DNA from: a virus | UHGV virus genome: UHGV-0176705 | Reading direction: 5' to 3' (one strand) | Length of the DNA stretch: 30,191 bases | Notes under the pieces: model-generated | The model's input: only the letters and a program-made list of their open reading frames with translations | Told to the model about the DNA's origin: nothing | The model's database searches: none | Program-made: the position numbers and the translations under genes | Shown here: piece by piece, positions 9,070-11,711 of the stretch | Layout of the letters: each line of letters starts with the position of its first letter | How positions within the stretch are numbered: position 1 is the stretch's first letter

Positions 9070-9312
9070 CTATTTCCTTTTCATGGCTCGTAATTTTTTC
9101 AGATGAGCTTCCTGCTCTGTTTCTGCCAGAATTTGTCGGTATTCCTGGTGATCTATCCGTTCAAACGATTCATTAAAATCGCTTATTTTTACAGATTGTG
9201 TTCGCCCATCCATTCTTCTGTACAACACAGTGTTGTTTATGCAGCGAATAATTTTTATCGGGTAACCGGCACTGTCGGTATACAGTTGCCCTTGATTAAT
9301 CAAAGCGAACAT
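9070..9312 (-). CDS. Hypothetical protein (80 aa)
   Basis: Internal ATG at 9312 preceded by AGGAGAAAAA; no recognisable motif. Confidence 0.4.
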   Translation of the reverse strand: MFALINQGQLYTDSAGYPIKIIRCINNTVLYRRMDGRTQSVKISDFNESFERIDHQEYRQILAETEQEAHLKKLRAMKRK

Positions 9313-9343
9313 TTTTTCTCCTGCTCTCTGAATAGTGAGAACT

Positions 9344-9715
9344 TCAGAGCCGTATGTTTGTAGCGGGTTCAATACTGATAATTTCTGCTGAGATAAGCAT
9401 CCCGGCAAGCCAGAGTTCTCTGGACAGGTCTTCATCCTGGCATATCAGTTCGCCAATATTAATGGTGGCCATGATATCTGTTTCCCCTGTGCGCTCATCC
9501 TCGACTTCTTCATAAGGCAGCGTTGCGTACAGGCTTTCAATAGCGCAACTGATAACATCCAGTCCGGTCAGATTGCCGCCGACAGTAACTTCGAATGTTT
9601 CGCGGTATTCCCATAGTCCGAAAGTTAATCGAACGGTTTGTTTTGCCATGCGTCCGCATGACGTCAGATTCGGGTCATAGTTCATTATTTGCGGTTGAGT
9701 ATTCTGGGTGTTCAT
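9344..9715 (-). CDS. Hypothetical acidic protein (about 124 aa)
   Basis: ORF in the early-left operon; start taken at the ATG at 9715 (alternatives 9721, or GTG at 9787); a GCCCGGC/GCCGGGC hairpin lies just upstream. Confidence 0.4.
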   Translation of the reverse strand: MNTQNTQPQIMNYDPNLTSCGRMAKQTVRLTFGLWEYRETFEVTVGGNLTGLDVISCAIESLYATLPYEEVEDERTGETDIMATINIGELICQDEDLSRELWLAGMLISAEIISIEPATNIRL

Positions 9716-9755
9716 CTGCATTTCCCTTAGCCCGGCGGCCTGCCGGGCATATAAG

Positions 9756-10583
9756 TTATTTAACCTGGATAAATGGTGTATTTGCACCGCTGGTCATGTA
9801 TTGCGGCAGTGTGCCGTTCCATTTATTGATGGCTTCCAACTCCATAACACCGGGGTTCTGGCGCAGAGCTTCACCGCGTAAACGAATAGCATCGGCTTCG
9901 GCCTGGGCTTTTGTGCGAATCGCATCAGCCTGTCCGGCAGCTTCCGCGCGCAACATGTTGGCTTCCGCTTCACGCTGTTTAACTTCCTGCTCGCGCTGCA
10001 GTGTTTTCTGGTTCGCCGTGACTTTGGCATTAATGCTGTCGATAACGGTTGACGGGTACTCCGGCTTACCCACATATGAGAGGCTCATTACCTGAATACC
10101 GATGGGTGTCATTTCCTCCTGGATGTCTTTAAGAGCTGCATCCAGTAGTTCAGACTTCCCGCCGTCGATAAATTTGTCGGTGGTCATTTTGCTGGCCAGT
10201 CTATTGAGTGCGTCGGCGATCTTTTGACGTAGGTCGGTGTCGGTAATGTCATCCACGCCTTTGCGGTAGGTCTGAAACACCGTGGTAACTTTGGATGGGT
10301 CAACTTTGTAGGCCACGCCGATGTGATAGCCGATGGTTGTACCGTCACTCATCTGGAAACTGAACGGTTCATCGTAGGTCTTCATTTGTTTGAAGGTCGG
10401 GAAGATGTAAACTTCAGTATTCCAGCCGGTCCAGTAGCGGCCAACGCCAACCACTTCACCGACGCCTTTGTCGTCGCCCAGTTTATTTACCTTGATGCCA
10501 ACATTACCTGGTTCAACGCGATCGCAACCGACAAGGCCAATGGTCGGAAGAACAATGGCTAAAGCAAAAATAACTTTTTTCAT
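9756..10583 (-). CDS. SPFH/band-7 (prohibitin/HflKC-like) domain lipoprotein
   Basis: Signal peptide with lipobox MKKVIFALAIVLPTIGLVGC; SPFH-like core followed by an Ala/Glu/Arg-rich coiled-coil tail (REQEVKQREAEANMLRAEAAGQADAIRTKAQAEADAIRLRGEA). Confidence 0.7.
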   Translation of the reverse strand: MKKVIFALAIVLPTIGLVGCDRVEPGNVGIKVNKLGDDKGVGEVVGVGRYWTGWNTEVYIFPTFKQMKTYDEPFSFQMSDGTTIGYHIGVAYKVDPSKVTTVFQTYRKGVDDITDTDLRQKIADALNRLASKMTTDKFIDGGKSELLDAALKDIQEEMTPIGIQVMSLSYVGKPEYPSTVIDSINAKVTANQKTLQREQEVKQREAEANMLRAEAAGQADAIRTKAQAEADAIRLRGEALRQNPGVMELEAINKWNGTLPQYMTSGANTPFIQVK

Positions 10584-10768
10584 CTTTTACCCTTAGTGAA
10601 AGAAAGACCCTTGTAAATGGCATAAATGCAGGGCGGGGTCAGAAACGCCAGTGCAAAGCCGGAAATGACTGCTACCGTATCCTTCATGGATATAAGGAAC
10701 GGGACGAGTAGTCCGTAAATGCATGCGATAATTGCCAGTAAAATTACTATTCTGAAATACAATCTCAT
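10580..10768 (-). CDS. Small two-TM membrane protein, translationally coupled to the SPFH lipoprotein gene (NfeD-like partner?)
   Basis: 62 aa, two hydrophobic helices (IVILLAIIACIYGLLVPFLI and VISGFALAFL); its stop overlaps the lipoprotein start by 4 nt. Confidence 0.4.
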   Translation of the reverse strand: MRLYFRIVILLAIIACIYGLLVPFLISMKDTVAVISGFALAFLTPPCIYAIYKGLSFTKGKR

Positions 10769-10791
10769 TGGTTTGTTGCATCCCGATATTT

Positions 10792-10899
10792 TTAACTGAC
10801 TGACAGCGCAATAAAGAGAATAATGATTTCTGTTAGTGTCAGTACTGTGGCAAGGATTAAAAGCAGTTTTACTCTGCTTAATTCACGATTGCTTTTCAT
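10792..10899 (-). CDS. Possible small hydrophobic peptide (35 aa)
   Basis: MKSNRELSRVKLLLILATVLTLTEIIILFIALSVS; ATG at 10899 with no clear Shine-Dalgarno; below the track cutoff. Confidence 0.2.
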   Translation of the reverse strand: MKSNRELSRVKLLLILATVLTLTEIIILFIALSVS

Positions 10900-10944
10900 A
10901 TAAACGGTTAGTAAAAAACGGAAGAATTATATTCTTCTTAATAT

Positions 10945-11526
10945 TTAATGTGTCACTGGCGCTTCTGGCATACCATGAGTATTCAGATCGTGAATCATTT
11001 CATCCAGAAGGAGTTCAAGCCCTTCGCGCCCCATAGCAGAGACAATGAAACCATTATTAGGATCTGCGATGAGCATTTTTTGATAGAGAAACAGAACTCG
11101 CCCCATGCCTTCAGCTTCACCATATTTTTCAATAAATCCCCATTCGACATGGTTTTGCAGGGCAATGCGAAGTGGTCCTGGGTATATACTCATGCAACCA
11201 TGCTTCCCCTTATAAATAACTGCGCGATCTGTAGTTCCGTTATCGTTAGGGATATCAATGGTGCCGTTCTTGTCTTCCACTTCACTGATAAATTTCGCTA
11301 CATATAGCCAGCGCCACTGGGCAACCTTCATATCGACTGAAAATTTGCCCAGCAGTCCGGCATCATCAGCTTCTGCAATACATTGCATGATTCTTAACCC
11401 ATGCCAGTATGGATTATCGTATTCACCATCATTAAGCCGCTGTACGGCCTCAACATAATCAATGGTTGTATTGCCAATTTTTATGCCATGTGGCGTAACT
11501 TCTGGTCGGAACTCTGAATGATTCAT
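10945..11526 (-). CDS. Hypothetical protein (193 aa)
   Basis: ATG at 11526 preceded by AGGAGCAAACATT; no recognisable motif. Confidence 0.5.
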   Translation of the reverse strand: MNHSEFRPEVTPHGIKIGNTTIDYVEAVQRLNDGEYDNPYWHGLRIMQCIAEADDAGLLGKFSVDMKVAQWRWLYVAKFISEVEDKNGTIDIPNDNGTTDRAVIYKGKHGCMSIYPGPLRIALQNHVEWGFIEKYGEAEGMGRVLFLYQKMLIADPNNGFIVSAMGREGLELLLDEMIHDLNTHGMPEAPVTH

Positions 11527-11711
11527 AATGTTTGCTCCTTTGCTGGTGGAATAATCGTGTAGCCAGCTCTTTTTGCCATCCACAGAAATGTATCCATGCA
11601 GCCAACGAATTCATTATCCAACAGATGTTTTGAGTAAATTACTTCACCATTTTCAATGGTTAGCAACACTCTTACTTTTTTATGTGTTATGTTCTGTTGT
11701 TTTTCTTTCAT
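11523..11711 (-). CDS. Hypothetical small protein (62 aa)
   Basis: ORF ending immediately upstream of the next gene's start. Confidence 0.35.
   Translation of the reverse strand: MKEKQQNITHKKVRVLLTIENGEVIYSKHLLDNEFVGCMDTFLWMAKRAGYTIIPPAKEQTL

Follow-up and report, generated by a model that had tools for sequence, protein, structure and literature searches.

We examined the virus genome UHGV-0176705, a stretch of 30,191 nucleotides referred to below as the window, and found that the minus strand between its excisionase gene (8702-8911) and its cI-like repressor gene (12828-13520) carries a tight string of genes encoding ten proteins. By sequence comparison, this region is the leftward early operon of an stx-negative, phiP27-like temperate phage integrated in E. 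coli, and the operon is probably repressor-controlled. As a whole, the region is best explained as a probably repressor-controlled early-left operon that lacks a recombination module and carries accessory cargo of proposed function, a reading to which we assign a probability of about 0.7. It is an ordinary mosaic accessory early operon, and for most of its products a function can only be inferred.

Three classes of content make up the operon. A promoter-proximal backbone encodes a helix-turn-helix (HTH) regulator, L08, orf37, orf62 and orf193; a variable cargo slot holds here a two-gene membrane cassette and then a DUF5406 gene; and a conserved block on the xis/int side consists of the small basic DUF4222 protein and orf48. 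The original prediction, made from the sequence of 9070-11711, had described minus-strand open reading frames (ORFs) of 80, ~124, 193 and 62 amino acids (aa) together with an SPFH module, and all of these are present; orf48 lies just outside that interval and is conserved beside xis. It had also described good Shine-Dalgarno (SD) sequences and overlapping stop and start codons. Consistent with this, we find the SD sequences GCAGGAG and AAGGAG and three ATGA overlaps, in which the stop of the 62-aa membrane protein gene overlaps the SPFH start (10580-10583), the orf193 start overlaps the orf62 stop (11523-11526), and the L08 start overlaps the stop of the HTH regulator gene (12272-12275). Together, the SD sequences and overlaps indicate translational coupling. 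The features are listed below from the repressor gene to the excisionase gene; values after family names are E-values, hairpins are given with folding energy and z-score (z), and the names L03 to L10 are those of phiP27 genes.

12828-13520: cI-like repressor gene, with Peptidase_S24 and HTH domains
12787-12805, minus strand: intrinsic terminator after the cI-like gene, an 8-base-pair (bp) stem and then nine T (-12.6 kcal/mol, z = -3.6)
12732-12760, minus strand: pL-like sigma-70 promoter TTGACA-17-TATTAT, matching 11/12 consensus positions, the best site in 8700-13900
12734-12749: putative repressor operator, the palindrome AATAGGTTTACCTATT, overlapping the promoter spacer and -10 element
12272-12691, minus strand: HTH_3 regulator, 139 aa, first gene of the operon; L10-like; Pfam HTH_3 8e-12; phrog_4836 7.8e-51
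11910-12275, minus strand: L08-like acidic protein, 121 aa; L08; phrog_5451 1.6e-81
11716-11829, minus strand: orf37, small basic protein of 37 aa, probably real
11523-11711, minus strand: orf62, soluble protein of 62 aa; L07; phrog_340 3.2e-24
10945-11526, minus strand: orf193, acidic protein of 193 aa, isoelectric point (pI) 5.1; L06; phrog_1515 1.4e-93; SD AAGGAG
10913-10937, minus strand: weak terminator-like hairpin with a T-run, 3' of orf193 (-4.9 kcal/mol, z = -1.9)
10792-10899, minus strand: orf35, hydrophobic ORF of 35 aa, doubtful as a coding sequence; no SD
10580-10768, minus strand: membrane protein with two transmembrane helices, 62 aa; phrog_1130 1.5e-23; grand average of hydropathy (GRAVY) 1.23
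9756-10583, minus strand: SPFH/Band-7 lipoprotein, 275 aa; L05; Pfam Band_7 1.8e-30; phrog_200 9.1e-114
9726-9755, minus strand: G+C-rich hairpin without a T-run, 3' of the SPFH gene (-17.1 kcal/mol, z = -1.8)
9686-10924, minus strand: swappable cargo segment comprising orf35, the two-helix protein gene, the SPFH gene and the G+C-rich hairpin
9344-9721, minus strand: DUF5406 protein of 125 aa (start at 9721) or 123 aa (start at 9715); L04; PF17400 3.4e-22
9070-9312, minus strand: DUF4222 protein, basic, 80 aa, pI 9.5; L03; PF13973 6.9e-15; SD GCAGGAG
8920-9066, minus strand: orf48, small basic protein of 48 aa, adjoining xis; phrog_3871 4e-35; ratio of non-synonymous to synonymous change (pN/pS) 0.11-0.38
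8702-8911, minus strand: excisionase; phrog_2917 7.6e-41

The position and the control signals of these genes are those of an early-left operon, as had been predicted: the string adjoins xis/int, and a sigma-70 promoter (12760-12732) lies directly downstream of the cI terminator. Transcription would start at this near-consensus promoter. Sites related to its palindrome, ATCGATTTACCTATTGAT (13595-13612) and TCAATAGG (13622-13629), are present in the gap between cI and cro, and all three are candidate operators to which the cI-like repressor would bind. The likeness of the promoter palindrome to the other two makes it probable that the operon is silent in a lysogen, and it would be switched on after induction or infection. 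An Rfam search detected no RNA family in 8700-13900.

Phage lambda, whose pL operon runs in the order N, cIII, kil, gam, bet, exo, xis, int, provides the natural comparison. As in lambda, the operon in the window lies between the repressor gene and xis/int and runs in the same direction, its promoter has a palindrome like an operator, and it is made up of a string of small, translationally coupled accessory genes. Its first gene differs, encoding a 139-aa acidic HTH_3 regulator (pI 4.8), which PHROGs labels a 'CII-like regulator', and not a small, basic, arginine-rich antiterminator of the lambda N type. The prediction that recognisable recombination genes are lacking held throughout: no ORF in 8920-12691 matched Exo, Bet, Gam, RecT, Erf, Sak or Abc in Pfam, PHROGs, NCBIfam or PADLOC, and no homologue of Exo, Bet, Gam, Kil or cIII was found in the operon with the first three of these. 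Elsewhere in the window, the prophage genes code for anti-repressor-like regulators, replication proteins (O-like, DnaC-like and DnaB), Q, an OmpC-like porin, a DNA methylase, lysis proteins and terminase. No recombinase is annotated or was found there, and none is annotated in the complete phiP27 record. The lack of a homologous-recombination module thus appears to be a property of the whole phage group, which presumably relies on host recombination.

Prophages in E. coli ETEC1732 and six other genomes match the region at 99.1% identity, and phiP27 (NC_003356) does so at 95% over L03-L10. In ETEC1732 and phiP27 its genes are annotated as hypothetical, DUF4222, DUF5406 or SPFH, and the sequence is therefore already known. 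With phiP27, a Stx2e-converting myovirus, the window prophage shares 95% nucleotide identity over window positions 8917-12276 (L03-L08), the same gene order and the same lambdoid regulatory layout. The two differ in that the similarity starts at 8917, so that the integrase and excisionase of the window prophage are not those of phiP27; the phiP27 record has no annotation of the 62-aa membrane protein gene or of orf37; and the window prophage has an ompC-like porin gene after Q, with no stx gene among the ORFs examined.

Comparison with the early regions of related prophages revealed a conserved backbone interrupted by a variable slot. In three relatives (ASU11, a Stx1 phage and PhiR49_2), both flanks are kept, with the HTH regulator, L08, orf37, orf62 and orf193 on one side and DUF4222, orf48, xis and int on the other, while the middle differs. 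In ASU11, 9686-10924 is replaced by ~296 bp containing an unrelated 93-aa ORF between flanks that are 88-90% identical; the Stx1 phage and PhiR49_2 carry other cargo in the slot, including MarR-like, Ea22 and EaA genes. Since the backbone is kept and the middle differs among relatives, we conclude that 9686-10924 is a swappable cassette in a variable slot. Its base composition is also atypical: G+C is 0.50 for the SPFH gene (0.56 at third codon positions, GC3) against 0.35-0.44 for orf193, orf62, orf37 and L08. Presence or absence among close relatives and atypical composition, two marks of a moron, are both seen in this cassette. Further afield, a Citrobacter prophage of the same architecture has an orf193 homologue, 50% identical, at the same operon position.

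The original prediction found no assignable motif in these genes. For most of their functions this stands, but the SPFH gene and its 62-aa partner form a discrete cassette common to many phage lineages. The SPFH protein scores 106.8 bits against PF01145 (cut-off 23.6) over residues 22-208, followed by a helical tail rich in Ala and Glu. Its signal peptide ends in LVG-C, giving the lipobox LVGC, and at the start of the mature protein, MKKVIFALAIVLPTIGLVG-C-D-R, residues C20, D21 and R22 are invariant in homologues from four phage types whose signal peptides diverge. In E. coli, Asp at position +2 of a lipoprotein leads to retention in the inner membrane. The sequence has both the lipobox Cys and Asp at +2, and from this invariant Cys-Asp start we predict that the lipoprotein is retained on the periplasmic face of the inner membrane.

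The pair is widespread. At the protein level, SPFH homologues are encoded in 412 phage records, including N4-like, rV5-like, phiCbK-like and crAss-like phages, groups known to be strictly lytic. At the DNA level, the SPFH gene is present in 716 of 5,426 complete E. coli genomes (~13%), with about half of the places on plasmids; among plasmid-collection records that match, the majority are non-mobilizable. The pair itself was seen in phiP27-, P2-, P1-, SSU5-, N4- and rV5-like phages. Partner homologues with the motif LxP.(M/L)(I/V)S lie directly upstream of the SPFH gene in P2-like P88, SSU5-like Cyrano and N4-like MY01, and in rV5-like 4MG the homologue is upstream with one gene between it and the SPFH gene. 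In P1-like RCS47, an unannotated two-helix ORF of 78 aa takes the place directly upstream. This RCS47 ORF (3275-3511, minus strand) overlaps the SPFH start and is homologous to the annotated partners in other phages. Outside the phiP27-like group, annotated same-strand genes abut the pair upstream in the contexts examined, P88, Cyrano and MY01 among them. These abutting same-strand genes and the presence of the gene in lytic phages favour a role during infection.

Among proteins of known function, the only relatives of the SPFH lipoprotein are HflK, HflC and prohibitin, and the matches are weak. The NCBIfam HflK and HflC models matched at E = 1.2e-5 and 3.4e-5, with 24.4 and 23.4 bits against cut-offs of 134.4 and 159.4, so that the protein falls outside these equivalog families, and HflK in the PDB matched at E = 6e-4. 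In architecture, it resembles HflK/HflC, QmcA-YbbJ and YqiK-YqiJ in having an SPFH/Band_7 domain followed by an Ala/Glu-rich helical region, and it differs from HflK/HflC-type proteins in its predicted anchor, a lipoprotein signal and not a transmembrane helix. The cassette is also like NfeD-SPFH pairs in that the gene directly upstream, in one operon with the SPFH gene, codes for a small membrane protein; a Pfam search detected no NfeD domain in the 62-aa partner, its only match being DUF6320 at E = 0.04. Envelope exclusion proteins of phages include the lipoproteins Llp of T5, Cor of phi80 and N15 and Ltp of TP-J34, as well as T4 Imm and Sp and P22 SieA. The likeness of the pair to these is in kind only, a lipoprotein and a small inner-membrane protein that are accessory and sporadic among relatives, whereas no sequence similarity was detected with Pfam, PHROGs or PADLOC. 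In the literature, SPFH-type genes have been noted in phage genomes with no function assigned (PMC13239085, PMC1524935, PMC4936722), and the reason for their presence in phages is stated to remain unclear (PMC13239085); in the literature searched we found no functional study of phage SPFH lipoproteins. The NfeD-SPFH pairing is reviewed in a reference cited in PMC9872710.

The 80-aa ORF had been considered unassignable, whereas we find that it belongs to DUF4222, the RgdR family. It scores 54.8 bits against PF13973 (cut-off 27; E = 6.9e-15), and RgdR (ECs1581) of E. coli Sakai scores 82 bits (2.1e-23) against the same model. RgdR, a prophage and phage-inducible chromosomal island (PICI) protein, acts positively on LEE1 and type III secretion and negatively on motility, and its binding to DNA is non-specific (PMC3378721, PMC6092414, PMC10877973). 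Like RgdR of prophage CP-933C and of E. coli PICIs, the 80-aa protein exceeds the gathering score of PF13973 and is small, basic and encoded on an E. coli integrative element. RgdR differs in its length, 99 aa, and in its gene adjoining a primase gene; the 80-aa gene adjoins xis and, in the phiP27-like group, is always found beside it. By this likeness, the DUF4222 protein would most likely be a small nucleic-acid-binding co-regulator. With DUF4222, DUF5406 and SPFH, three of the five products are in named families, one of which has a characterised regulatory member. Homology to a regulatory protein, which the original prediction had named as evidence against its view, is therefore present in part, through DUF4222/RgdR; homology to recombination proteins (Erf, Sak, Abc) is not.

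The remaining soluble proteins have few relatives. The orf193 family comprises 60 clusters at 90% identity and 132 representatives among 1.84 billion proteins; its named sources are Escherichia and Citrobacter, nearly all members are single-domain proteins of ~190-210 aa, and no fused domain was found in the longer ones (P0169, P0259, P0203 and others). Structure prediction with AlphaFold2 gave confident models for orf193 (predicted local distance difference test (pLDDT) 90.1, predicted template-modelling score (pTM) 0.84) and for the very acidic DUF5406 protein (pI 4.1; pLDDT 82.5), with no significant fold match for either. Foldseek found no match for orf193 in the PDB or among the predicted viral structures of BFVD (best E 0.28 and 0.06, TM-scores near 0.2) and none for DUF5406 in the PDB (best E 0.17); TM-scores of the matches returned for the two models were at most 0.35. 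The ~124-aa ORF, also regarded as unassignable, has a Pfam family, DUF5406, but still no fold or function match. DUF5406 occurs in Escherichia, Salmonella, Citrobacter, Serratia, Pseudomonas and Stutzerimonas. In Serratia it is in a lambdoid early-left operon, and in a Mu-like prophage of Pseudomonas it is located in the early region, flanked by a MuB-like ATPase on one side and by DUF3164, GemA and Mor on the other; it appears in no paper of the literature searched.

The orf62 family has 28 clusters, of which all named ones are from Escherichia, and no detectable relatives elsewhere. PDB sequence searches with single proteins and family profiles returned no significant match for orf193, DUF5406, DUF4222 or orf62. 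Two ideas about orf62 were set aside: the Citrobacter prophage has an unrelated 140-aa protein in its place, so it is not a conserved partner of orf193 beyond Escherichia, and matches to the C-termini of anti-repressor PHROGs (E = 0.004 and 0.06) were too weak to use. BLASTP aligns the C-terminal half of L08 with the N-terminal domain of the HTH regulator (41 aa, 32% identity, E = 6e-4), and the two proteins have phrog_4587 in common. This hints at a regulator/anti-regulator pair, in which L08 might associate with the HTH regulator and modulate it. For the orphan soluble proteins in general, we propose with low confidence a generic role, in which they are made early and bind or inhibit proteins of the host; for orf193 and DUF5406, both acidic, the most likely action would be to inhibit such proteins by binding them. 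Functions in host takeover, anti-defence or exclusion, which the original prediction raised for early accessory genes of this sort, are plausible candidates.

Judging from other SPFH proteins, the lipoprotein would most likely assemble on the membrane into a ring or cage that encloses its small partner, and the pair would alter the envelope early in infection. Its most probable effect would be to block the entry of DNA from superinfecting phages, or to guard against premature lysis and protect the envelope. We tentatively combine these views: the pair may be an early envelope module common to temperate and strictly lytic phages of many lineages, a periplasmic-face cage that blocks competitor genome entry or controls lysis or a protease, and orf193 and DUF5406 may, separately, be inhibitors of host proteins with novel folds.

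A number of observations weigh against this picture. No promoter was detected for the cassette in a sigma-70 scan of the coding strand, and a weak terminator-like hairpin (10913-10937), which is below the G+C threshold of the terminator scan, lies upstream of it; given these two points, the level and timing of cassette expression in the prophage are uncertain. Repressor binding to the promoter palindrome, like the mechanistic steps beyond gene content, conservation and topology signals, is something that we infer. Neither the SPFH pair nor any other unassigned protein matched a defence family when the nine non-HTH proteins were searched with PADLOC (PADLOC-DB 2.0) at E <= 1. A role different from the one proposed here has been reported for a Pasteurella prophage protein that is described as HflK/C-like, namely that of a virulence factor activating TLR1/2 (PMC9872710). 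The 80-aa protein is a distant relative of RgdR (30% identity over 27 aa, E = 0.16); with the pair aligned in register, the RGD tripeptide of ECs1581 (residues 20-22), which matters for RgdR activity (PMC3378721), falls on QGQ (residues 7-9). The function of RgdR is thus a lead for the 80-aa protein, and regulation of type III secretion may not apply to it. Finally, because the high-confidence models of orf193 and DUF5406 match nothing, their proposed role as host inhibitors is drawn from their acidity and their place in the early operon.

Two other explanations of the cassette rank below an envelope role at the infection stage. It could be a lysogenic-conversion moron, expressed from the resting prophage and benefiting the host through superinfection exclusion, host interaction or virulence. 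Such a gene would be expected to come and go among close relatives, as this one does, and to stand out in composition from its upstream neighbours (0.50 against 0.35-0.44). It is also flanked by a hairpin on each side, one weak and the other without a T-run, is common in temperate phages and phage-plasmids of E. coli, and has the reported TLR1/2 virulence factor of Pasteurella as a possible parallel (PMC9872710). However, the coding strand upstream has no detectable sigma-70 promoter, and the promoter of the operon that contains the cassette has a palindrome resembling an operator. Moreover, its homologues in N4-, rV5-, phiCbK- and crAss-like phages have no lysogen to benefit, and in P88, Cyrano and MY01 the pair is closely flanked upstream by same-strand annotated genes. 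We therefore consider a moron of this kind unlikely.

Alternatively, the lipoprotein could be a phage analogue of HflK/HflC that modulates FtsH or another membrane protease and tunes the lysis-lysogeny decision, as cIII does from the same operon position in lambda. The SPFH domains of HflKC are on the periplasmic face, where the lipoprotein is predicted to be, and HflC, HflK and prohibitin are its only relatives of known function, if weak ones. The first regulator of the operon carries the 'CII-like' label of PHROGs, and this suggestion has also been made for a satellite prophage of Pseudomonas (PMC4936722). The scores, however, are far under the HflK/HflC cut-offs (24 bits against 134-159). 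In addition, the module is found in strictly lytic groups, which make no lysogeny decision, and in P1-like and P2-like phages, whose switches use no CII/FtsH circuit. This makes a role in FtsH control improbable.

The operon could still be lambda-like in content if it had a hidden recombination or end-protection function, for example if orf193 or DUF5406 were a new annealing protein or a Gam-like inhibitor. The backbone gene orf193 is conserved where lambda keeps its recombination genes; orf193 and DUF5406 are both acidic, as are some nuclease inhibitors; and DUF5406 is located in a Mu-like early region, a region that in Mu also holds gam. Against this, the confident models have no solved-fold match (best E 0.28 and 0.17), with no likeness to solved recombination or Gam-type proteins at E <= 0.001 in a PDB library that includes solved recombination proteins. 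Profile searches against PDB sequences were empty, and Pfam, PHROG and NCBIfam gave no recombination or Gam/Abc match. We regard a hidden function of this sort as very improbable.

Codon-by-codon comparison of each ORF with homologous stretches in up to seven related prophages (69-100% identity) showed that the named ORFs are under purifying selection and are real genes. The pN/pS was 0.02-0.08 for the SPFH gene and 0.08-0.35 for the other ORFs named in the original prediction (0.08-0.21 for orf62), none of these ORFs was disrupted in relatives of at least 90% identity, and every one matches a PHROG family at E <= 1e-23. The idea that they are decaying or spurious frames of a cryptic prophage, without function, draws on orf35, which has neither SD nor coding signature, and on RefSeq, which annotates only a 68-aa part of the 121-aa L08 ORF, but it is already contradicted by the substitution pattern (pN/pS 0.02-0.35 for every named ORF) and, in view also of the PHROG memberships, the confident models of orf193 and DUF5406, and the same genes in the inducible sequenced phages phiP27 and ASU11 (the latter from mitomycin C induction), it is almost certainly wrong.

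The two smallest ORFs are distinct cases. Although orf37 has no family match, it differs from the Stx1 phage by 13 synonymous and 8 non-synonymous codon changes, and a 37-aa gene is annotated at its position in the Stx1 phage and PhiR49_2; on this pattern and these two annotations, it is probably real. For orf35 the changes are 2 synonymous and 5 non-synonymous, with no Pfam or PHROG family match, and it is doubtful because it has no ribosome-binding site and no coding signature. On the plus strand, weak promoter-like sites (9/12) lie at 10796-10827, antisense to orf35. A type I toxin-antitoxin system made of orf35 and this plus-strand promoter was considered and dropped, given the missing coding signature and a promoter of only 9/12, from the same promoter scan as above, which gave fewer sites than random shuffles do.

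Elsewhere in the window, several other loci were noted. At 177-3645 (plus strand), an A+T-rich pair (G+C ~0.33-0.35) encodes a 572-aa protein with HEF_HK and HATPase_c domains and a 588-aa Response_reg_2 protein (PF19191, PF19192); this atypical two-component-like pair lies beside a P4-type integrase gene (4172-5443, minus strand) and has no PADLOC match. The interval between the two integrase genes holds three plus-strand genes (5715-7579), whose products are a 317-aa protein that matches HATPase_c_2 weakly and below the Pfam cut-off, a STAS-like DUF4325 protein of 144 aa and a protein of 189 aa without a family. They resemble a kinase/antagonist pair of the anti-sigma type, borne as cargo of an island; PADLOC gave no match for them, and the closest E. 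coli relative, ETEC1732, has different genes there.

In the right operon, Rfam identifies IsrK (55.4 bits) and C4 antisense RNA (84.4 bits) back to back inside an 'ash family' ORF (15206-15394, plus strand), which suggests P1/P7-type antisense control of the anti-repressor region. The OmpC-like porin gene (20253-21350, minus strand), located just after the Q antiterminator gene and on the opposite strand, is likely to be a lysogenic-conversion gene; phiP27 has other genes there and, further downstream, stx2e. A 107-aa ORF (13967-14290, minus strand; phrog_10846, 1.1e-48), on the opposite strand between cro and a Rha-like gene, is annotated by RefSeq as a BssS family protein in the closest relative and may be a moron.

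In most respects this operon is ordinary, as mosaic accessory early genes without assigned function are the rule in temperate phages. The results do indicate that a common group of E. coli prophages, including the phiP27-type Shiga-toxin phages, has a lambda-like regulatory layout without a recombination system of its own, and the missing recombinase bears on replication, recombination and module exchange in phiP27-type phages. Through the 80-aa protein, the group is linked to the RgdR family, which includes a regulator of virulence genes in enterohaemorrhagic E. coli (EHEC). The two confident orphan folds form a second lead, after the SPFH pair. Carried by ~13% of complete E. coli genomes and more than 400 phage genomes, and under strong purifying selection, that pair is the best lead and a concrete experimental target.

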